A stretch of DNA of 64,000 bases, taken from assembly GCA_041660065.1 (NCBI GenBank), contig JBAZXC010000002.1:170620-234619 (forward strand). Reading direction: 5' to 3'. Shown here in pieces: positions 11,301 through 60,455 of the stretch (positions are counted from its first letter, which is position 1; the number at the start of each line of letters is the position of its first letter). The notes below the pieces were generated by a model that made no database searches, had not been told where the DNA came from, and was given only the letters and a program-made list of their open reading frames with translations. The DNA comes from Parcubacteria group bacterium. Lineage in GTDB: Bacteria; Patescibacteriota; Minisyncoccia; Moranbacterales; GCA-2747515. Position numbers and translations under genes: made by a program.

Positions 11301-11344
11301 AATAATAAAAAATTTAACTTGTAACTTATTTAATATGACTGTCA

Positions 11345-11456
11345 TTTTTTCTTTTATATAAGCAATTACTGAAAGCCCACTTTTGTCATCCTGAATGTGT
11401 TTCAGGATCTCGCATATACGGCTTATATAGATGCTGAAACACGTTCAGCATGACAT
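11345..11456. repeat. ~115-bp intergenic repeat element copy 1 (two hairpins: TCCTGAA..TTCAGGA and ATGCTGAA..TTCAGCAT)
   Basis: Near-identical to 56149..56280 (second copy has a 22-nt insertion in hairpin 2 loop). Confidence 0.7.
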
Positions 11457-11564
11457 GGATATTAAATGAGTCTTTGTGTCTTTATTATACCACTATTCCC
11501 CATGTAAAGAATAAAGCCCCAATATTTTTTGTAAAATATTGGGGCTTTGGAATCAGTGATGGCA

Positions 11565-32637: not shown

Positions 32638-32671
32638 GTAACATAATCCCACGGCCGTGGGAATATGTTAC
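32638..32671. repeat. 34-bp palindrome R4, candidate autoregulatory operator
   Basis: GTAACATAATCCCACGGCCGTGGGAATATGTTAC, perfect 34-bp palindrome. Confidence 0.85.
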
Positions 32672-32851
32672 TTTTTTACACGTTTGAAATTTGGAGAATT
32701 GTGGTGTATTTCATCCTATATTTTTGCATTGATCATTTATCCCGATAATTTTAACGCAATGAAAGATACCAAACCACATCTATCATTTATTCTTTCAAAA
32801 ATTGAATTGTTTTTTGCCCCGTGTTTTATTTTTTAATGACTTTAGCTATGT

Positions 32852-32885
32852 GGTACATAATTATACGGCCGTGGGAATATGTGAC
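32852..32885. repeat. 34-bp palindrome R5 with conserved left flank
   Basis: GGTACATAATTATACGGCCGTGGGAATATGTGAC. Confidence 0.85.
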
Positions 32886-32979
32886 CTTTGATGCGTCGAT
32901 TGATATCATTTGTCAGACCAATCTTCACATACCCCGGCATCGCCTCGTTGATCAAAATATAGATAATTTCATTTATAGT

Positions 32980-34158
32980 TTATTTTTTAGGTTTTAATAA
33001 CAATAGTAATTCTTCTGATTTCACTCGTGATGCTTTGATTTTATTATTTTTTAGTTTATTGTTTCCTCCTAGAGTACTAAATTTACCAACAATGACATCA
33101 TGAGAATGTTGTCTACTGGACTTATCAATGTCAAAATATTTTCTTGATATCTCCTTAACTAGTTCACCAGAAAGTCCATTGCTACATTTTCCTTTTGGAA
33201 ACGTGAAAATTACTGACACTTTTTTTTGTGCAAGCACACATAAAAGATCATTAAGTGCTTTTTTTGACTGACTTAAATTACTAAAATGTGACTGTGGTCT
33301 CTCCGTAATGTCTGGGTAGCGTCCTACGCCGGATACTGGTCCACATGTGCCTCGTGCGATTGTTTCTAATACGTGATAAAACCTACTATAATGCACACCG
33401 GAATATGGCGGATCAATAAAGACAAGATCGCCCTCTTTAACTTTTGTTTTGATAAAATGGATTGCATCATCCACATATGTCTTTCCTTTTACTTTTGCGT
33501 GTTTTTCAGAAATTTCCTTAAGGGTAGTCTTGCATACATGTATGATATCTCTATGCCATGCGTCATAGAGAAACTTTCCAGCAGTTTCTGTTGGTTGAAA
33601 AGGTTGAGCTGTGTGCCCCGGAGCTGCTATCGTTCGACTTACAGCATCAATAAGCGCTGCAAGACATGCTGTTTTTTCTGTACTGTTTTTTGGTAAATAT
33701 TTTATAAGATAATCAATCGTCAACGCTTGTAATGGACTGAAATAGTGACCGCCATATGCATTCCAGATTGGACCAATACTTGATTTTTTTTCACATAGTT
33801 TTCGTGATTTTTGAACTGTTTTTCTAAGTACACTGATTTTACAATCCTGCAACTTCACTGCTTCATTAAAAAATGTGGAGGATTTTATCTTTGCATTTGC
33901 TTCTTCAATCCATTTATTTTCCAGTGACACAGGATTTAACTTTTTGTCTCGCTCAATAATAGAACCAGACAAAATCTTACCATACATTTGCAAATCAGAA
34001 GCTAAAACAGGCACATTGAAACTTTGTGCAACATGATGCACAACCGATCCAGCACCACAAAAAGGATCCACAAATCTTTTTGCAGTTGGCACGGTTTTTT
34101 TTATTAGTTCACCCAATCCATTATTTAGCATGAACCGCTTTGAGCCCATGTATTTCAT
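32980..34158 (-). CDS. D12-class N6-adenine DNA methyltransferase (Dam-like) with ~100-aa C-terminal extension
   Basis: DPFCGAGS (motif I) and VFIDPPYSG (motif IV, DPPY). Confidence 0.75.
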   Translation of the reverse strand: MKYMGSKRFMLNNGLGELIKKTVPTAKRFVDPFCGAGSVVHHVAQSFNVPVLASDLQMYGKILSGSIIERDKKLNPVSLENKWIEEANAKIKSSTFFNEAVKLQDCKISVLRKTVQKSRKLCEKKSSIGPIWNAYGGHYFSPLQALTIDYLIKYLPKNSTEKTACLAALIDAVSRTIAAPGHTAQPFQPTETAGKFLYDAWHRDIIHVCKTTLKEISEKHAKVKGKTYVDDAIHFIKTKVKEGDLVFIDPPYSGVHYSRFYHVLETIARGTCGPVSGVGRYPDITERPQSHFSNLSQSKKALNDLLCVLAQKKVSVIFTFPKGKCSNGLSGELVKEISRKYFDIDKSSRQHSHDVIVGKFSTLGGNNKLKNNKIKASRVKSEELLLLLKPKK

Positions 34159-35877: not shown

Positions 35878-38355
35878 TTATTCACTCCACAATTTAGCGA
35901 TCACATCTTTTGTTTTTTGTTCGTATATGTCGATGAGTTTTTTTGCTGATTCAACCAAAACACGTTCTGCTTCAATTTTTTCTACAATTAGTTTTTGATT
36001 TATTTTTGATGGCAAAGAAATTTTGATGGATCTAATAATTGGCATATTCAAACCACCTCTTTGATTTTCTCCGTTAATGTTTCTTATTTCTTGATATTTT
36101 TCTTTCAAAGAATATAATAAAAATTCTGAGATCAATTTATTTTCATCTGGATTTATAGAAACCAACGATTGATTACAAGCAGCTTCAGTTCTAAGAATGG
36201 CAATGGTCCCACGTGTCTTTCCTTGACCATTCAATGCTATCAAAACAGAGTTTTTTGGCAATAATCTAGCATTTGAATTATCTAATCCAAGCTGTGTAAT
36301 CCTACCTTCACAATCATAAATTTCCCCTCTATGGATATCACCAGAAACAAGCCACTTAATATCCCCATTATAATATTCTTTAATTGTGGATCGTGGAGTG
36401 CCTCCTGTCATGAGCGTAGAAACATCTCCAATCTTTACCTTTTTCCACTCTGGGTCAATTTCAATTTTTGGCTTCCAATTTTCTGTGATTTGTTTTGCGC
36501 CGGTGATGATTTTTTGATAGCCATCCAATTCTGCTACGATTTTTTCTTGGATTTCGAGAGGTGGAAGTGGAATTTTTGTTGATTTTAATTTTCCAAAATG
36601 TCTTTTGTACCCGTCAGATTCTATTGGATTTACTATTAAATAATAATACAAAAATTTTGGAAGCAATTTGTCATTTGTCTGCAAAATTTTAATACCATCT
36701 GCACCTTGAATAAAATTATTTTCAATATATTTAATTGCGCAGGTATGATCACCAAAAACAATCACTGGGTTTTGTACTGATATTATGGCATCTACATCAT
36801 CGCTCCAACCAGATATATTATCTTGAGATTGATCAATGACAGGATATCGACCATCACTTTTTATATCTTCTTTTTTTAATTTTTTTGGTGGAACAATCGT
36901 AAGTATTAAGTCTTCAATTTTTATCATTGGCCATTTTACATTTGTATAATCTACAGATTCAAAATAGCGATCGCCACTCAAATTATAATCTCCACTCTCC
37001 ACAATTTTAGATTTTTTAACGGCTGTTGCTATAGATTCCGGATCAAGTCCGGAATGACATGATGAAGGCATCGTTTGATTTTCTTTCCATGCATTTAAAA
37101 TTTCCACTGCACATGACAAATCATTTTTATCACTTGGTCTGCGCTGTGCGCCGAGATCAAAACCATCATTGGCGATTTTGACAAAAAGAATTTCGTCATT
37201 CGTTTCCTTTTTGGTCTTGTCAAAAAAGAGGATTGACGTCTTCACACCTGCATACGGATTAAAAACGCCACTCGGCAAACTTACCACAGCCCAAAGCCCT
37301 GCATCTTCTACAAGCTTCTCACGAATCGCTTTATGCGCACGAGCTGCCTGAAAAATCACGCCCTCTGGTACAATCACGCCACATCGCCCACGATCAGTCA
37401 GATGACGAATCATATAATTGAGAAAAAGCACTTCAGTCGCTCCTGTGTCCATCTGCAATTCTTCTGCCACTGCCGCACGATCGATCTTGCCCGCGAATGG
37501 TGGATTTGCCAATATGATATCCCATTTTGTCGTTTCCCCTTGCGTATCCACAAGTGAATTGCGTCGCTTAATCGTCGCATGTGGCAATTTATGAAAGTAT
37601 AAATTCATGAGACCGAATTTGATCATATCCGGATCACTGTCAAACCCCGTGAATGCTTGATTTTCCAAAAATTTCTGTTGTTTTCCTGTGAGGATATCCA
37701 TCGGAAATTTTCCCGCTTTTTTAAAATCATCAGTTGTGTACTTCTGTTTCAAATGATCCAATGCCGCAACAAGAAATCCGCCCGTACCACAGGCCGGATC
37801 ACAAATACTTTCTTCTGCCTTTGGATCGATGACGTCTACAATAAATTTGATAATATGTCTTGGTGTGCGGAACTGTCCTCCTGTGCCCGCTGATGCGATA
37901 CTGGAAAGCAAATATTCATAAAGATCGCCAAAAAGATCCGATCGTGTTGTTTTTTCTTCAGATTCTAGATCTGCCATCAATTCTTCGATTTTATGCACGA
38001 CTGTACGCAGTGCCGGTCTGGCAAAAAGTTTCACATGTGCTTTGTTGTAAAGCATCTTCACTGTTGGATTCGTTGTTTTTTCTGCAATTTTTTCAAAGGC
38101 ATCTCCCAAGTGTCCGAAAAGAGCATCTGCATTGAGACTGAGAATATTATCCCACTGATAAATTGCCAGCTCCCCACTTAAAACCGGTTTATATTTTTTG
38201 TCCAACAGTTTTTGCTCTTGATCATGCTTGTGTAGTTCGCGTAAAAAAATAATATAAATCATGAGTTCAATCACCGCCGTATGATTGGTAAGACCGCCAG
38301 CCCAAATGACATCCATAATGCTATTGATCTTGCTACGAAATTCTTGTAATGACAT
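35878..38355 (-). CDS. hsdMS: Type I R-M methyltransferase fused to specificity subunit (HsdM-HsdS single polypeptide, two TRDs)
   Basis: HsdM N-domain, motif I DPACGTGGF, motif IV LANPPFAG; C-terminal half has two target-recognition domains each ending in conserved LPPLEIQEKIVAELD / LPSKINQKLIVEKIE. Confidence 0.85.
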   Translation of the reverse strand: MSLQEFRSKINSIMDVIWAGGLTNHTAVIELMIYIIFLRELHKHDQEQKLLDKKYKPVLSGELAIYQWDNILSLNADALFGHLGDAFEKIAEKTTNPTVKMLYNKAHVKLFARPALRTVVHKIEELMADLESEEKTTRSDLFGDLYEYLLSSIASAGTGGQFRTPRHIIKFIVDVIDPKAEESICDPACGTGGFLVAALDHLKQKYTTDDFKKAGKFPMDILTGKQQKFLENQAFTGFDSDPDMIKFGLMNLYFHKLPHATIKRRNSLVDTQGETTKWDIILANPPFAGKIDRAAVAEELQMDTGATEVLFLNYMIRHLTDRGRCGVIVPEGVIFQAARAHKAIREKLVEDAGLWAVVSLPSGVFNPYAGVKTSILFFDKTKKETNDEILFVKIANDGFDLGAQRRPSDKNDLSCAVEILNAWKENQTMPSSCHSGLDPESIATAVKKSKIVESGDYNLSGDRYFESVDYTNVKWPMIKIEDLILTIVPPKKLKKEDIKSDGRYPVIDQSQDNISGWSDDVDAIISVQNPVIVFGDHTCAIKYIENNFIQGADGIKILQTNDKLLPKFLYYYLIVNPIESDGYKRHFGKLKSTKIPLPPLEIQEKIVAELDGYQKIITGAKQITENWKPKIEIDPEWKKVKIGDVSTLMTGGTPRSTIKEYYNGDIKWLVSGDIHRGEIYDCEGRITQLGLDNSNARLLPKNSVLIALNGQGKTRGTIAILRTEAACNQSLVSINPDENKLISEFLLYSLKEKYQEIRNINGENQRGGLNMPIIRSIKISLPSKINQKLIVEKIEAERVLVESAKKLIDIYEQKTKDVIAKLWSE

Positions 38356-38358
38356 TTT

Positions 38359-40779
38359 TTATATTTTTAATATTTTACTTGTGGCAATATCTTCCGCCAT
38401 TTCGATCAGTTCTTCCTCTTTAAATCGTTCTAACCATTCACCCGGTCTATACACGTTAAATGGTGGCTCTGATAAAAATGACACATTTCTCTCCTGTGCA
38501 GATCGCACCACTTTCTCACGCAATTCATCGTTGGTCGTCATCTTGGCAAAAATCAGTCGTGACATCAATGTGCGCTCTTGATCCGCACCTGGCTCTATAC
38601 CGTATTTTTGTACCATATCCTCCATCCATTGATCTCTCTGCGAATCACGCGTTGGAAGCTCTTCCTTGCCCAGTGCACTGAGTACAAAATTACGAATGGA
38701 TACAATTACACCAAAACCTTCTTGCAATTTATCTTCTGAAAAATATTCTTTTGGTTTGTTAAATACGTGTTCATCCAAAAATAGACTCAACTCTGCCTCA
38801 CGCTCTTCATCTTCTGCCATCTTGAGAACTTCCCCATTTTCTGCGACAATTTCTTGAATTGCTTTGGTCCATGCGGATTGATACATGTTTTTGTCCACTG
38901 CATCACCATCGGGACCAACCGTCATTTTATCCCTGGTAAGCACAGCATCATCATCGTTGCTCACAATTGGTGTAAATGGCGACGGCGTTTCAGTTCCACC
39001 ATCGCCAATAACTCCCTCACCTCTGCCACCTGTCACCGTAGCCCCCTTTAATATTAATGGGGTTTTGAGTGGCGCTTCCCAATCATATTTTTCTTCAAAG
39101 TATTCCACAACACCGCAAAAATCAAAAATCGTAAAAAACTCTTTTTTAAAATCTTTACCATCATGGTGAAACGTGTACAAACGTGTGCCGCGTCCCTTAA
39201 TTTGCTGATATGAGGTTGTTTCAAAAATCGGTCGTGCAAGTACGATATTGAGAACTTCCGGACAGTCAAAACCTGTGGTGAGCATATCTACTGATACCGC
39301 AACACGCATACGTTGATTTTCTGGATCCTTGAATTCTTTGGCGATTTGTTGTGCATTCATCACACTACTCGTAATTGTTTTGGCAAATTGTCCACCATAT
39401 GCCGGCATCATCTCATTGAGAATTTTTTCCAACTTCAGTGCATGCCGCTGTGATACCGCAAAAATAATCGACTTGCCAATTTCTCCATCAGGTGCTTTAT
39501 TGGCATTATCGAGAAATTCCTGCATCATCGTGCGGTTCGTTTTTTCCAAATAGACCTTCTTTTCCAAATCTCGAATTGTAAAGGATTCGCCCTTTGCCTC
39601 GGATACTTCCAAACCCTCTGGACTAAGTGCCTTTTGCGTAAGCACCGTGTTCATTTTGTGAAATCGTGGACCGACAAGAAATGGCCCCTGTGAATCGCCA
39701 ATGCCATCTTGAATAGTATAACGATATGTTGCCACACCATCCGCACATCCAAAAAACTTATATGTATCTCTCTGAAGACGTTTTTCAAATGCACGCGGAT
39801 CATCTATTTGTAATTGTGATTCATCAATATTTTTGAGAAAGTCTTTCGGTGTGGCAGTGAGACCAACTTTTGTCGCTCCGTAAAAACGATCTGTTGCAGC
39901 ACGTGCTTGTGCAGAATATATACTGCGGTGTGCCTCATCATGAATAATTAAATCAAAATACCCCGGTGAAAAATAATCTTCGCCATTCTTAATCATGCTT
40001 TGAATTGTTGCCACCACAACATTTGCGCCAACAATATTATTGCGTGCACTTCCCCAAAATGTGGCAATGGATGATAAATCACCTAAAATTGGTTCGAATG
40101 CCCCCTTGGTTTGTGTAGCAAGTGTAATACGGTCTACAAGAAAGAGAACATTTTGCGCCTGGTGTGTTTCTAAAAATTTGCGAATAAGCGCAGCCGCAAG
40201 TCCAGTCTTACCCGTCCCCGTTGCCATCTCCAAAAGAAATGCTCTTTTGCCGGCATCATATCCTTCGGCAATTGTATTGATTGCTTCTACTTGATAATGG
40301 CGCAATGAAAAATTACTCGGATCAACTCTTTGTAAATAGTCTGGTGTGATCGGATTGCGCGTAAGTGGCACTACATTACCCATCGTATCAGCATTTCTTT
40401 TGCGCTCAAGATCCCGTTGTGTATAAAATTCATTTACTTGAATCGCATCTCCTTTGGTAATATCCCAAAAATAAATAACGTGATCATTTGCCAAATAAAT
40501 ATATTGGATTTTTCCTTTATACTGAGCATCCACATAATTTAACGCCTGTTGTTTGGCGCTATACGGATCAATTTCTGGTGCCTTTGCTTCAATAAGCGCT
40601 AATGGTTGTCCAGATGAGTTTTTCAAAATATAATCCGATCGTCCTGCAACGCCATGATCTTCAAAAATAACTTGTTGAAAACTTTCAATATCCCATTTGG
40701 CATCCCGCAATTTTCTATCAATAACAACACGTGAAAAAGCTTCACTCATAGATATAACATCATAATATAACTCTTTCAT
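38359..40779 (-). CDS. hsdR: Type I restriction enzyme R subunit
   Basis: N-terminal PD-(D/E)XK (DYIL...EAK), helicase motif I ATGTGKT, motif II DEAH; start set at MKELYY. Confidence 0.85.
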   Translation of the reverse strand: MKELYYDVISMSEAFSRVVIDRKLRDAKWDIESFQQVIFEDHGVAGRSDYILKNSSGQPLALIEAKAPEIDPYSAKQQALNYVDAQYKGKIQYIYLANDHVIYFWDITKGDAIQVNEFYTQRDLERKRNADTMGNVVPLTRNPITPDYLQRVDPSNFSLRHYQVEAINTIAEGYDAGKRAFLLEMATGTGKTGLAAALIRKFLETHQAQNVLFLVDRITLATQTKGAFEPILGDLSSIATFWGSARNNIVGANVVVATIQSMIKNGEDYFSPGYFDLIIHDEAHRSIYSAQARAATDRFYGATKVGLTATPKDFLKNIDESQLQIDDPRAFEKRLQRDTYKFFGCADGVATYRYTIQDGIGDSQGPFLVGPRFHKMNTVLTQKALSPEGLEVSEAKGESFTIRDLEKKVYLEKTNRTMMQEFLDNANKAPDGEIGKSIIFAVSQRHALKLEKILNEMMPAYGGQFAKTITSSVMNAQQIAKEFKDPENQRMRVAVSVDMLTTGFDCPEVLNIVLARPIFETTSYQQIKGRGTRLYTFHHDGKDFKKEFFTIFDFCGVVEYFEEKYDWEAPLKTPLILKGATVTGGRGEGVIGDGGTETPSPFTPIVSNDDDAVLTRDKMTVGPDGDAVDKNMYQSAWTKAIQEIVAENGEVLKMAEDEEREAELSLFLDEHVFNKPKEYFSEDKLQEGFGVIVSIRNFVLSALGKEELPTRDSQRDQWMEDMVQKYGIEPGADQERTLMSRLIFAKMTTNDELREKVVRSAQERNVSFLSEPPFNVYRPGEWLERFKEEELIEMAEDIATSKILKI

Positions 40780-40887
40780 TCTACCCCCTATCCCACCAAA
40801 AATCAAAAAAATGGCTTTTTTATGGTGTTTTTTTTGGTGTTGCTATTTATTTCATTTTATCATGATGCTCTTTTGATAACATATACC

Positions 40888-44545: not shown

Positions 44546-45331
44546 GGATATATTTTGTTTTAAATTAGCACATTCATTCTACCCTTTTTCCCTATTCCCT
44601 GCCAATGTGATGCAATTTTTAAACTCTTCAGAATTCCCGAATGGTTGGGGATGTTTAAAATCCCTCTTTAATTCCTACCTACCGGCAGGCAGGCCCCCTT
44701 TACAAAAAGGAGATATGCAAAATTTTTTTGTGTGATAACAAATTTACAGCCAAGCACAGGTAATAAAAATGGGCATCAGTGATTTACACCAATGCCCTTT
44801 GCAAATTTACCAAGGGTTCTTCCCTCTTTTTTACAGATTTAACGGATCAATTTCGTCATGATTATCCAAAACGATCATCCCCTCCACGGTAATGTATCGT
44901 ATGGGAATTTTGACTCCAGGTGGCAACACAAGTCCATTCGTCTTGCTAATATCTTTTTTTTACAATGATATCGAGTCGCTTGGCTCTCGTCTCTTTCCTT
45001 TGGCGATCCCTCCCCACTTCCACTACGCGATCATAGTGAATTTGTTGACGGTATTGAATCGCTTGTGATCTCATCTTATCCCTATTTTGGCACCCTCTTT
45101 TCATCTTGTCCCCCATATTTTTGTTGAATTTGATCAAACTGGAGACTCATCTTATCCGCTTGTGTATTTATCTAAAGAACTTCGTTTTGTAATCGACTAT
45201 AAAAAAGAGTACACGGCGAGCCGGCTCATGTCAATTTTTTTGCACATTTCACACGCATTGCGTTTTTTGCTATGATAGCAATAAATGGATTTTACCGAAC
45301 CATAAACCATCCCAATGACAAGGAGGATCTC

Positions 45332-47505: not shown

Positions 47506-47713
47506 TTGATATGAGGTGGCACAAGATCAAAAAGCAAGAGCATGAGGAAAACTCCCCATGCTCTTTATTTATTGTGTATAGGATTAAGTCTAGATTCCCG
47601 TTTTCACGGGAATGACAAGAGTTTTCAGACTCAAACATAGTTTCTCCTGACAATTTTTTCTTTGATTTCTTGCCCAAATGTAAAAGCCGGTGTTTCTTTT
47701 GAAACATCCGGCT

Positions 47714-53278: not shown

Positions 53279-53455
53279 TAGATATGATCTAAACAACCCG
53301 CAAAAGCGAGTACGGTATGTAATATATCTGACTCGCTTTTTTATTTCACCCGGTTGACTTCTCTTACATTTCATCCTACACTACCCCTTCATGTTGTTTA
53401 ACAACACTTTGTATAAAAACCCATCCCCAAAACCTAACAGAGGAGGTGCACATCC

Positions 53456-53773: not shown

Positions 53774-53984
53774 AAAAATTTCATTCTTGATCCTACACAA
53801 GCGAGTACGATATGCACTATATCTGACTCGCTTTTTTGTTGGCAAATCCAGCCGTCGCATGAAGCTATGGACTGGCAAGAAAAAACCGGGGGAATCTCTG
53901 CTGAGATCCTCCCGGTTATGCTTCGCCAAGCCATAGCCTTTTGTTCGTAGAATGGCTTTGCCAAGCCGTAGCCTTGGTCTTTTT

Positions 53985-55283: not shown

Positions 55284-55656
55284 CTCAATCCTCCATTTTG
55301 ATCTATGTTTATGAAGCACTTCAATGCAACTAGTGTAATATGCTTCTGTTAAAGTACAACATGATATAGTACATGAATATTTACAACGCGTCAAACCGTA
55401 AAAACTGCACGTCTGAAAACTCAAAAAATCACGCATATATCAACAAGACCCCCTCTCCCTGAGGGAGAGCTTGCCTACCGGCAGGCAGGGGTTGGGGTGA
55501 GGGGTATTTCAAGCAAGATCATTGCCTGATCACACTTTTTAGTGTATAACTGCACAAGGTGCCAAACACACCACCCTTTGCGTAAAGCTACGGCTTGGCA
55601 AAGAAAGAACTGCCATTTTTGTGACAGTTTTCTTTTTTATCCTATTTTTTCTTTTT

Positions 55657-56100: not shown

Positions 56101-56148
56101 ATATGGCTGTTATTAGTATCCCTATTAACTAATTTAATATAAATGTTA

Positions 56149-56280
56149 TTTTTTCTTTTATATAAGCGCTTATTGAAGGCAAACTTTTGTCATCCTGAAT
56201 TTATTTCAGGATCTCACACTCATGGCTTACTTAGATGCTGAAACAATCTGCCTGCCGATAGACAGGGTTCAGCATGACAT
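56149..56280. repeat. ~115-bp intergenic repeat element copy 2 (with 22-nt insertion related to the CCTGCCTGCCGG motif)
   Basis: Aligns with 11345..11456. Confidence 0.7.
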
Positions 56281-56376
56281 AGAAAAATAAATAAACTCTA
56301 TATGTTTGACTATATCACACAAATGCAAAGCCCGCACAAGTAACCGTACAGGTTTTTCATTTTTCTTGATCCGTTC

Positions 56377-57829: not shown

Positions 57830-58858
57830 TCAAATATGCAATAGCGCATGATCCAATTTTAATGCAATTTTTGTTTTCAATCGATGTGTATTTCCATGGC
57901 TCAACAACCCTTCATATGAACGCCATCTTTTCAGTGTCGCATTTTTCCTCATCCGTCGCACCATCCTCTTTTTCGTCTTCGTCCGCAAGATCCGATGATC
58001 AGAAAAGATGATCATCCCGAGAAAATCCACACCGGATGAGAGGGTTTTGATAAAAACCTTGTCCGGATGCATTTCCAGTCGTAATTCTTCCCACAAAAAG
58101 TTCTCTATGGCTGGAATATCATTCTCCAACTGTTTTTTGTTTGTGGCTAAGAATACAAAATCATCCGCGTAACGAATATAGTATTTTGCTTTCATTGTAT
58201 GTTTTGCAAACTGATCGAATTTGTTCATATAAATATTCACAAATAATTGTGAAGTCAGGTTGCCCAGCGGAAGTCCGATTTTCCTCTCTTTCCTGTGGTA
58301 CGGTTGAAATGACGAGAAACTCTCTATGATGTTTTCAAGAAGTGTGATGATATTTTTGTCCGGAATATATTCGGAGAGAATTTTTAATAAAATATCATGG
58401 TCGATATTTGCAAAGAATTTTTTGATGTCGCATTTCAAAACCCAACATGTTTTTGTGTTATTTTGACTGACTTTATGAAAATATTTTTTAAATCTATTGA
58501 TTGCTTTATGGGTTCCTTTATCATTTCTGCATGAATACGAATCAGCGATAAATGTTTTGTCAAAAAACGGATAGAGTTTTCTATAGATTGCATGATGCAA
58601 AAGCCGATCACGCACGATAGCTTTGTGGATGTTTCTTGGTTTGGGATCGTTGATTTTGAACGCTTGATAACCGCCGTGTTTATAGGTAAAATTACAGAGA
58701 TCATTGTGAAGCAAAAAGATGTGATCCATGAGTCTCAAGGAAAATTCCTGCACGTCCTTCCTGTTTCTCTTTCCTTTTTCAAATTCTTTCCATGCTTCCA
58801 ACAAGTTTTCTACACTGATAATATCATCATACGTATGAATCAATTGAATTTTCATCAT
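57830..58858 (-). CDS. diversity-generating retroelement reverse transcriptase
   Basis: RT motifs incl. YADD (IRYADDFVFL) and DGR-type motif 4 GLPLGNLTSQLFVNIYM (SQ instead of SP); 342 aa, no maturase/endonuclease domain; adjacent Avd, TR and VR. Confidence 0.8.
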   Translation of the reverse strand: MMKIQLIHTYDDIISVENLLEAWKEFEKGKRNRKDVQEFSLRLMDHIFLLHNDLCNFTYKHGGYQAFKINDPKPRNIHKAIVRDRLLHHAIYRKLYPFFDKTFIADSYSCRNDKGTHKAINRFKKYFHKVSQNNTKTCWVLKCDIKKFFANIDHDILLKILSEYIPDKNIITLLENIIESFSSFQPYHRKERKIGLPLGNLTSQLFVNIYMNKFDQFAKHTMKAKYYIRYADDFVFLATNKKQLENDIPAIENFLWEELRLEMHPDKVFIKTLSSGVDFLGMIIFSDHRILRTKTKKRMVRRMRKNATLKRWRSYEGLLSHGNTHRLKTKIALKLDHALLHI

Positions 58859-58886
58859 AGTCAGACTTTTAAAGCCCCCCAGAGGA

Positions 58887-59240
58887 GTGCCTGCTGTAAT
58901 TACAAAGGAAAAAGAAACGTATAGTTATTGGTTGACATTACATCGCAATTTTCCCAAAACGGAACGCTACGGGCTCGGACGCAGGATCGACCAAATATTT
59001 CTCGAAGTTCTGGAATCAAGTTTTACTGCCACATATTTGCCACCAGAACAAAAAGTGCTACTTCTGGGGAAAATAATTTCACGCCTTGATATACTCAAAT
59101 TTTATTCTCAACTTGCATGGGAAAACAAACTCATCCCCAATAATCATTATATAGATCTTTCACAGAGACTAGAAGAGATCGGTCGCATGCTCGGTGGATG
59201 GAGAAAAGGACTTTTGGAAAAGAAAACTCCTGCAAAGTAA
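58887..59240 (+). CDS. avd: Avd (accessory variability determinant, four-helix-bundle protein); GTG start; opposite strand to RT/TR/target
   Basis: Architecture and C-terminal EIGRMLGGWRKG match Avd/TIGR02436 family (compare Bordetella phage Avd ..EVGRILGSWI..). Confidence 0.7.
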   Translation: MPAVITKEKETYSYWLTLHRNFPKTERYGLGRRIDQIFLEVLESSFTATYLPPEQKVLLLGKIISRLDILKFYSQLAWENKLIPNNHYIDLSQRLEEIGRMLGGWRKGLLEKKTPAK

Positions 59241-59264
59241 GCAGGAGAAAAAACAATAAGTTTC

Positions 59265-59374
59265 GGAGCCACCAAACGATGTTGATTCTCGGCGTTCCAG
59301 ACGTTCGAGTTCTCAAGCCGGTTCACATTCGCCTTGAGCAAGTCGTCCGAGTTGAAGTTCACGTTGGCAACGAA
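59265..59374 (-). repeat. DGR template repeat (TR), 110 bp
   Basis: Aligns with VR at offset 433; 12 mismatches, all at TR adenines on the minus (sense) strand. Confidence 0.85.
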
Positions 59375-59684
59375 ATATGCGACGAGCCATCCACACCATC
59401 ATCCTTTGAATACTCTCAGGATTGTATCTTATGCGGGACATAGAAGTCTGCCGGCTCATCGCACCAACTGGCTGTTTTTTTGTTTCAAAAAACATATCCG
59501 CTATTTTGCAAGACATATCCGGCAAAATCCTCGAGTACATTTTTTGACAACCTTGATCTGAGGCCTTAACCGCAAATTTTTCCAAGATTATAACTCTATT
59601 ATACAAAAAAATCCCTCTGATTCAAAGTGCCAAAGCACCAAAGAATCAAAGGGACTAAAAGAAAAGGAACTAGATGACTTAGTT

Positions 59685-60455
59685 TCAAGCCAGATGCGGA
59701 GCCACCAAACGAAGTCGAAACTCGGCGTACCAGACGTTCGAGTGCTCAAGCCGGCGCACATACGCCCTGAGCAAGTCGTCCGAGTTGAAGTCCACGTAGG
59801 CAACGAAGAACTCACCCGTATCTTCATTTTCAAGTAGAAAAAATGTGCCGTAACCATCTCTCTTGAGTTTATCGCGATACTTCACCGCGAATTCTTCAAC
59901 GTGACCTTGTCCGACACAAAGCTTGCGCAGATCTTCCCGATATTTTTCAACGAACTCCCCAAAACTTTGAAATTCATCAGGAGATGCGCCAAACAAAAAA
60001 CCAAAAAGTTGACCAAATGTGCCATCCTCAATCATTTCGCGAACGCGAACCGTGATTTTGTTTTTTCTGGAACACTTTTTACTAAGTCCCCAATTTACAA
60101 AATCGCGATCTATGCCAGCCTTAAAAGTATCTTTGGCATTAGAAAGCATCTTGGTGCCATCATCCGGTCCGAGCTCTATGATTTCATCCTGATAAAGATC
60201 GCGGAGATAGACTTTTGGACTACTAGAGGGTTTTACTACCTCAGCCACATTATCAACTGGCACGATCTTATGTGTGCCGTTGAGAACTCCGCGAAATCCT
60301 GCGTGATTCCTATACTGACCGAACTTTGTAACCTCACTTGATGTCCAACCTTCCGCTTCCAGCTTTTCCATCAGTTGATGCGTTTGACCTTCGGAATAAG
60401 AAGACATGTCTTCCTCCTTTTGGCACATGTGCCATCGTAAATATTTTGCTGCCAA
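59685..60455 (-). CDS. DGR target protein with C-terminal variable C-type-lectin-like region (..DFNSDDLLRAYVRRLEHSNVWYAEFRLRLVAP)
   Basis: VR at 3' end; TR-encoded version has AAY (Asn) codons at variable sites; ends in FRLxLV-like motif common in DGR VRs. Confidence 0.75.
   Translation of the reverse strand: MAAKYLRWHMCQKEEDMSSYSEGQTHQLMEKLEAEGWTSSEVTKFGQYRNHAGFRGVLNGTHKIVPVDNVAEVVKPSSSPKVYLRDLYQDEIIELGPDDGTKMLSNAKDTFKAGIDRDFVNWGLSKKCSRKNKITVRVREMIEDGTFGQLFGFLFGASPDEFQSFGEFVEKYREDLRKLCVGQGHVEEFAVKYRDKLKRDGYGTFFLLENEDTGEFFVAYVDFNSDDLLRAYVRRLEHSNVWYAEFRLRLVAPHLA
59698..59807 (-). repeat. DGR variable repeat (VR) occupying the last ~36 codons of target gene
   Basis: Identical to TR except at positions where TR sense strand has A; shared GC-rich 3' end TCGTTTGGTGGCTCC (IMH-like). 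Confidence 0.85.

Follow-up and report, generated by a model that had tools for sequence, protein, structure and literature searches.

Two copies of a composite hairpin element

Within the 64-kb stretch of a Parcubacteria genome analyzed here (the window), an intergenic element is present at nucleotides ~11322-11456 (copy 1) and ~56126-56280 (copy 2), both read on the + strand and delimited by alignment of the two copies. Copy 1 is located between a FabA-like gene, with a 16-bp terminator hairpin (11513-11548), and a DUF2207 gene. Copy 2 separates an M17 aminopeptidase gene, which has a terminator-like hairpin (56331-56352), from a DUF4178 gene. The four flanking genes are all encoded on the minus strand, in agreement with the original prediction, which had placed both copies between tandem minus-strand genes. 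Between the FabA-like terminator and copy 1, an extended -10-like box, GTGGTATAAT, can be read from the sequence (11484..11493, minus strand). If GTGGTATAAT is a promoter, copy 1 would form part of the 5′ leader of DUF2207. In a separate assembly of this strain, Logan contig L061 breaks off within copy 2 (bases 1-26 of the contig), which is consistent with a repeat that breaks short-read assemblies.

The predicted existence of two copies was corroborated with two probes, a 16-mer (TTTTGTCATCCTGAAT) and a 14-mer (GTTCAGCATGACAT), each found without mismatches at these two places of the window and nowhere else in it. Nucleotides 11322-11438 and 56126-56242 align without gaps and are identical at 98 of 117 positions; beyond this block copy 2 carries a 20-nt insertion, followed by 13 bases that are all identical to those of copy 1 (13/13). 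The right end proposed earlier for the element stands, whereas the left start does not: the block common to both copies begins ~23 nt further left, and identity is 90% between 11322-11363 and 56126-56167. The leftmost part of copy 1 is a non-hairpin extension of ~62 nt (TAACTTATTTAATATGACTGTCATTTTTTCTTTTATATAAGC..., 11322..11383, + strand), common only to copy 2, where the homologous sequence spans 56126..56187 (+ strand). No further match to it was found in the window, nor any in 180 REP-bearing loci from other genomes. A metagenome scan with an AT-rich 17-mer of this extension, TTTTCTTTTATATAAGC, gave 120 chance matches, none of them adjoining a hairpin unit. The extension is private to this genome and falls outside what the nuclease model proposed below accounts for; by analogy with the NIMEs of Neisseria, it may represent a co-repeated block. 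A 22-nt outer inverted repeat around copy 1 (11324-11345/11450-11471, 82%) was considered as the possible ends of the composite; it is AT-rich and is not reproduced in copy 2, and its status is left uncertain.

The remainder of each copy consists of two hairpin units in inverted orientation, identified by a scan. In copy 1, unit 1 (11384..11411, + strand) includes a TGTC tag, a perfect 8-bp stem formed by ATCCTGAA (11388-11395) and TTCAGGAT (11401-11408), the loop TGTGT between them and a CTC tail. After a 16-nt spacer, GCATATACGGCTTATA (11412..11427), the inverted unit 2 (11428..11455, minus strand) comprises tag TGTC, stem ATGCTGAA, loop CGTGT, stem TTCAGCAT and tail CTA. The arrangement in copy 2 is the same: unit 1 (56188..56215, + strand) reads TGTC ATCCTGAA tttat TTCAGGAT CTC, the spacer is again of 16 nt (ACACTCATGGCTTACT, 56216..56231), and the inverted unit 2 (56232..56279, minus strand) reads TGTC ATGCTGAA, a 25-nt loop (56243-56267), and TTCAGCAT CTA. 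Two consecutive hairpins had thus been correctly anticipated, but their stems are of 8 bp (ATCCTGAA/TTCAGGAT and ATGCTGAA/TTCAGCAT) and not of 6 bp. The swap from CC to GC between units 1 and 2 is compensated inside each hairpin, both copies being CC/GC heterodimers. The outer arms are mutually complementary, as had been noted, units 1 and 2 of copy 1 forming a 27-nt inverted repeat (89%). With DNA parameters, a single long hairpin is obtained for single-stranded copy 1 (-22.6 kcal/mol, z = -9.0), and either two hairpins or a branched long one for copy 2.

The insertion in the second loop of copy 2, which had been given as 22 nt, amounts to a net 20 nt (loop of 25 vs. 5 nt). The enlarged loop includes a mini-hairpin, CCTGTCtatcGGCAGG. 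The proposed resemblance of the insertion to a GC-rich motif found elsewhere in the window holds, CTGCCTGCCG at 56248 being the reverse complement of CGGCAGGCAG at 44683 and 55479. Small GC-rich palindromes, CCTACCTACCGGCAGGCAGG, CTTGCCTACCGGCAGGCAGG and CCCCCTCTCCCTGAGGGAGAG, are present in this AT-rich genome at 44674-44693 and 55450-55489; a perfect palindrome form, CCTGCCTGCCGGCAGGCAGG, lies in the spacer of a Microgenomates dimer, and a fragment of it corresponds to the loop insertion of copy 2. The window also contains a 45-nt terminator-like hairpin repeat, AAAAGCGAGT...ACTCGCTTTTTT, at 53301-53345 and 53796-53840 (495 nt apart, 89% identity).

Two single units of the same superfamily complete the set, so that 2 dimers and 2 single units are visible in the window. 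One of them (47591..47617, minus strand) reads TGTC ATTCCCGT gaaa ACGGGAAT CTAG, with a stem of 8 and a loop of 4. The other (37032..37059, minus strand) reads TGTC ATTCCGGA cttga TCCGGAAT CTA and lies in frame inside ORF 35878-38355, a type I restriction-modification HsdM/HsdS fusion in which it encodes SSCHSGLDPESIA; an HsdR-like gene is located next door (38359-40806). The TGTC tag is found in all four dimer units and in both single units, and GTC before the stem and C directly after it in 6/6. These six perfect units in 64 kb compare with ~3 on average in mononucleotide shuffles, units with one mismatch included.

A reverse transcriptase gene is located near copy 2. A link between the two was dropped, as the enzyme belongs to a separate and complete diversity-generating retroelement (57830-60455, minus strand) with its own pair of template and variable repeats: reverse transcriptase at 57830-58858, template repeat at 59259-59374 and variable repeat at 59692-59807, the latter in the 3′ end of ORF 59685-60455. 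All 14 differences between these two repeats fall on adenines of the template (14/14). A relation of this kind between copies 1 and 2 was ruled out, their differences not being confined to adenines.

Distribution and conservation of the hairpin unit

The orthologous sites of relatives were compared. In one of them (L314), whose DUF2207 protein is 88% identical and in which the UvrC-FabA-DUF2207 synteny is kept, the corresponding spacer is of 143 nt, with a terminator and a TATAAT sequence at the equivalent place, and the element is absent from it. It is likewise absent upstream of the DUF4178 gene in relatives with 77-81% protein identity. As both orthologous sites lack the element, we interpret it as a lineage-specific insertion and not as a conserved leader.

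The paired module is by no means restricted to this lineage. A scan that included one genome per species retrieved it from at least 120 genome loci, in which the hairpins are near-identical and nearly invariant and the spacer, of 15-45 nt, is variable and lineage-specific. Its hosts include Sphingomonadales, Syntrophaceae, Bdellovibrionales, Armatimonadota, Elusimicrobiaceae, Treponema, Ignavibacteria and one Firmicute MAG; among the Bacteroidota, Flavobacteriia, Bacteroidales, Chitinophagales and Pedobacter; furthermore Balneolaceae and Rhodothermales; and, within the CPR, Roizman-, Levyi-, Moranii- and Magasanikbacteria, Microgenomates and Saccharibacteria. In viral contigs, the pattern GTCATCCTGAA-N3-9-TTCAGGAT gave 88 matches in 60 loci of very different G+C content. 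Three phage-like viral contigs (L018, L021 and L040) carry 4-7 copies each of the ATCCTGAA unit, interleaved with GTCAT-framed hairpins (GTCATTTCGAG.., GTCATTCCCGAA.. and GTCATTGCGAGG..) in nearly every intergenic gap. A literature search by the raw sequence GTCATCCTGAA and its variants returned unrelated primers only.

The most conserved positions of the unit are unpaired, namely the GTC tag and the C after the stem. Two positions that the search patterns left unconstrained are informative in this respect. GTC is preceded by C in 211 and by T in 129 of 365 non-redundant units (340/365), and the stem is directly followed by C in 325 of the 365 (89%). Further along the tail, position +2 is T or C and position +3 is C or A, CCA being typical of Sphingomonads. 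The conservation of these free positions leads us to define the unit as YGTC / AT-N6 / loop / N6′-AT / C-Y-N. When the tag and tail frame was used with stems that had not been searched for, 35 of 155 sites were perfectly paired, vs. 0.24% in an untagged control. The original prediction had proposed covariation across copies and relatives as a check of the hairpins; 17 different stem sequences were seen. The hairpin is therefore maintained by compensatory change.

Heterodimers such as those of the window predominate, with 87 heterodimers and 36 homodimers among 123 unique dimers. Three other loci (L071, L090 and L097) show small-hairpin insertions nested in the loop of the second unit, as in copy 2, and in the first of them a complete further unit has been inserted. 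The loop of unit 2 may be a preferred insertion point.

Association with GIY-YIG genes and the proposed mechanism

A class of hairpins with the same frame has recently been connected with an enzyme. In Neisseria, the sequence NTS, CGTCATTCCCGCGMAVGCGGGAATCYRG, contains the repeat dRS3. SsnA, a GIY-YIG protein of 94 aa with a single domain, binds NTS as ssDNA and cuts it in this form, whereas dsDNA, RNA and the reverse strand of NTS are not cut (Chenal et al., 2025, Nat Commun 16:2388; PMC11893778). Mutagenesis of NTS showed that the C after the palindrome is critical for SsnA binding and the 3 nt upstream for cleavage; in the same study, loop identity was dispensable and loop extension tolerated, and both the sequence and the shape of the stem mattered for recognition (PMC11893778). 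Homologues of ssnA across bacteria are flanked by such hairpins, termed SRM, the biochemistry being established for those of Neisseria and Wolbachia (PMC11893778). As loop extensions are tolerated, the 25-nt loop of copy 2 is compatible with Ssn recognition.

When the ORFs of the ~180 REP-bearing loci were clustered, one small family stood out: proteins of ~100 aa with Pfam GIY-YIG as sole match. In Winogradskyella (L133), Sphingorhabdus (L142) and Candidatus Roizmanbacteria, a CPR lineage (L155), the corresponding gene lies between a (+) and a (-) unit of the ATSCTGAA/ATCCCGAA type, exactly at the position that the spacer occupies in a dimer. On this basis, the short pair looks like a gene-less form of the cassette. 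Elsewhere, a GIY-YIG gene abuts a cluster of units (L068), a GIY-YIG pseudogene lies 84 nt from a dimer (L089), and hairpins of the CGTC type flank a further GIY-YIG gene (L303). The association can also be read from the protein side. Among viral-contig loci picked by protein alone, CGTC-type units are found at ≤200 nt from the gene in 4 of 11, their stems varying per locus (ATGCTGAA, ATCCCCGC, ATTCCAGC). The bracketed proteins are 38-46% identical to the L142 reference, and their hairpins are almost the same. They were assigned by their Pfam GIY-YIG match, the published Ssn class being cd10448; searches of NCBIfam and of PDB sequences with them returned neither a name nor a structure.

In the 64-kb window itself, tblastn and a custom HMM did not reveal an intact Ssn-like gene, and for this reason Ssn activity in this genome is something that we infer. 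The GIY-YIG content of the window is limited to a 37-42-aa N-terminal fragment of T5orf172 type (32842-32979, minus strand). The region of this fragment (32660-32979, minus strand) adjoins a D12-class adenine methyltransferase gene (32980-34158). The fragment is truncated at a hairpin, ACATATTCCCACGGCCGT..ATTATGT, that recurs ~215 nt downstream, and it looks disrupted by, or ending in, a small repeat.

The anatomy of the units, their spread across phyla, the linkage of hairpins of this type to GIY-YIG genes in other genomes and the empty orthologous sites are observed directly, and we consider it probable that they have a common explanation: the elements would be inverted dimers of CGTC-tagged REP or SRM hairpins, serving as ssDNA substrate of an Ssn nuclease and derived, by lack of the gene, from a unit-ssn-unit cassette. 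Each copy in the window would then be a tags-outward, inverted dimer of CGTC-2-type units ("Ssn-related motifs") joined to the private extension of ~62 nt, and its functional form would be single-stranded DNA. Upon unwinding of the strand, each unit would fold as an 8-bp hairpin exposing the unpaired 5′ YGTC tag and the 3′ C. A single-domain GIY-YIG nuclease of the Ssn family would bind the hairpin and the 3′ C, and would nick only the strand concerned, a few nucleotides 5′ of the tag. As the units are inverted, there would be one cleavable unit on each strand. ssDNA carrying TGTCATCCTGAAnnnnnTTCAGGATCTC would be the expected substrate of a cognate Ssn, for example the L155 or the L133 protein; an Ssn would act both in this genome and upon stems of this type, and would mediate the mobility of the hairpins, the latter a hypothesis already raised for Ssn by Chenal et al. 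(PMC11893778). The short dimer, as a gene-less derivative of the cassette, would be a REPIN- or MITE-like repeat that spreads or persists non-autonomously. In the Parcubacteria genome, two unrelated genes would each have received a copy upstream of their start codon and downstream of a -10-like box, and any effect on these genes, such as an RNA hairpin in their leader, would be a by-product. No target-site duplication was found.

The "MITE-like repeat" of the original prediction was hence essentially right, in the sense of an inverted dimer of a REP-type hairpin that is absent from the orthologous sites of relatives and shares its geometry with the gene-carrying cassette of other genomes. This common geometry supports, without proving, a mobile element with non-autonomous derivatives. 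A more specific version, in which the ATCCTGAA/ATGCTGAA heterodimer is the non-autonomous form of a transposon that has Ssn as its mobilizing enzyme and unit-ssn-unit as its autonomous form, in at least 8 phyla and also in the reduced genomes of the CPR, is in our opinion possible yet rather doubtful. If true, it would represent the first GIY-YIG-driven ssDNA mobility of a "peel and paste"-like kind in bacteria, and would supply the missing transposase of the CGTC REPs.

Other explanations were weighed against the Ssn model. The units might be targets of recombination, either for an IS110/Piv-type recombinase or as a phage landing site, as has been described for Neisseria dRS3. This possibility, which is compatible with the Ssn model, would agree with the small hairpins nested in unit loops (copy 2, L071, L090 and L097). 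We regard it as unlikely, since genes of the IS110 type were not seen beside units in the loci examined and the 20-nt loop insertion is the sole pointer to such an event in the window.

A structured RNA, be it a small RNA gene, as originally proposed, or a 5′ leader that regulates DUF2207 and DUF4178 in cis, would account for the location of both copies, which on the coding strand are preceded by a terminator and a -10-like box and followed by a start codon, as well as for the stable RNA folds of copy 1 (z = -5.4 and -4.9). Nevertheless, both strands fold equally well, the orthologous leaders of relatives do not include the element, and single units occur inside ORFs. Across genomes, the ORFs flanking the 87 heterodimers are tandem in 29 cases, convergent in 10 and divergent in 10, and in the tandem contexts the orientation is unbiased (13 same vs. 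16 opposite). A promoter and terminator pair framing the element was not found on either strand. Nor was a known Rfam family: at the gathering threshold there are 0 families in the whole window and none overlapping the module in 12 other loci. The hits of mir-44, AaHKsRNA41, RAGATH-27 and RAGATH-32 at the copies were discarded as nonspecific matches of the kind that long hairpins give, with scores far under the gathering thresholds. The conserved GTC and C, both unpaired, lack a rationale at the RNA level; they coincide with the recognition determinants of a nuclease that binds ssDNA and not RNA (PMC11893778). The small RNA gene is accordingly unsupported, and an RNA role of either kind appears quite improbable. 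As the element is a DNA repeat of REP type, its annotation as sRNA is unwarranted.

REP doublets are reportedly the mobile unit in Pseudomonas, and the elements described here share with REPINs, doublets mobilized by a RAYT (the HUH Y1 transposase TnpA-REP), the geometry of two inverted palindromic units able to form one long hairpin. That they are classical REPINs is very improbable: their tag is YGTC and not GTAG, the 2013 survey of CGTC-tagged REPs did not find a RAYT or IS200 gene flanked by CGTC units (PMC3733652), and in our set of ~180 REP-bearing loci the GIY-YIG gene is the only small nuclease gene recurrently bracketed, with no cluster of Y1 transposases. Finally, a double operator, in which a dimeric regulator would read both palindromes (8-bp half-sites ATSCTGAA/TTCAGSAT, near putative promoters) as duplex DNA, is scarcely credible, as the 20-nt insertion splits one palindrome of copy 2, the palindrome spacing varies from 15 to 45 nt, and the same sequence recurs in unrelated surroundings in many phyla as well as within ORFs.

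Relation to described repeat systems

Under the model of Ssn-targeted inverted dimers, the anonymous "double hairpin" is now placed in a described repeat superfamily and related to a recently discovered enzyme family. It is a new occurrence, in a Parcubacteria genome, of a known and very widespread kind of DNA hairpin repeat, and what is added is the presence of this hairpin type in Parcubacteria and in many other CPR lineages. For annotation it is relevant that such repeats interrupt assemblies and give rise to spurious ORFs, among them peptides in frame within real genes.

CGTC-tagged REPs have been defined by a CGTC or TGTC (or CCTC) tag, a stem of 8-9 bp starting with AT, a loop of 4-5 nt and a 3-nt tail, most often CCA (Di Nocera, De Gregorio and Rocco, 2013, BMC Genomics 14:522; PMC3733652). 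They are mostly inverted dimers, with heterodimers prevailing in the family CGTC-2, whose spacers are of 20-100 bp with often complementary ends; families range from 20 to thousands of units per genome, intragenic copies exist and a dedicated transposase is not known (PMC3733652). CGTC-2 was reported from Sphingomonads, Bacteroidetes and others, and Neisseria dRS3 and Rickettsia RPE-4 and RPE-6 are listed as members of the CGTC REPs (PMC3733652). The dimer units of the window agree with CGTC-2 in their TGTC tag, 8-bp stem starting with AT, 5-nt loop, 3-nt tail and arrangement as inverted heterodimers, the exception being the 25-nt loop of unit 2 in copy 2, which is caused by the insertion. Units lie inside ORFs both in the window and in the survey, and an intragenic CGTC-2 unit of Sulfurovum (2013 supplement) encodes RHSELVSGS, compatible with CGTCATTCTGAACTTGTTTCAGGATCT. 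By the stated rules of the 2013 survey and this one peptide, the window dimers classify as CGTC-2 REPs. They differ from the published ones in their tails (CTC/CTA, the commonest published tail being CCA), in their host, a member of the CPR, a group outside the 2013 survey, and in their fusion to the private 62-nt extension.

Neisseria dRS3 (ATTCCC-N8-GGGAAT), a CGTC-1 member, belongs to the same superfamily and differs from the window units in stem sequence and loop length. In the NIMEs of Neisseria, dRS3 units flank other repeat blocks of 50-150 bp. The private 62-nt block attached to the dimer resembles such a block; a difference is that the window shows just two composite copies.

The likeness to NTS and the SRM lies in the HGTCAT-palindrome-C frame, whose GTC and C determine cleavage and binding, respectively, by Ssn, in the multi-copy nature of the hairpins, and in their bracketing of a gene for a single-domain GIY-YIG protein of ~94-100 aa. 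The stems are different. With the published SRM search pattern, HGTCWYN(0-2)YYVSBRHN(0-5)WNVSBRGN(0-2)RNCYNB, only the single unit at 47617(-) was matched in the window; the four dimer units were not, the mismatch being in stem composition and not in tag or tail. The ATSCTGAA stems fall outside the pattern and, as this abundant stem class is missed, SRM censuses undercount. Inverted gene-less dimers, the CPR and Bacteroidota do not appear in the main text of the 2025 study (PMC11893778).

The REPIN/RAYT system (Bertels and Rainey, 2011) is similar in that a non-autonomous inverted doublet is linked to a single repeat-flanked nuclease or transposase gene. The two systems are nevertheless distinct, a GTAG tag and a HUH tyrosine transposase being found in the former and YGTC and a GIY-YIG protein in the latter. 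Furthermore, REPIN sequences are lineage-specific, whereas the hairpin described here is nearly identical across phyla.
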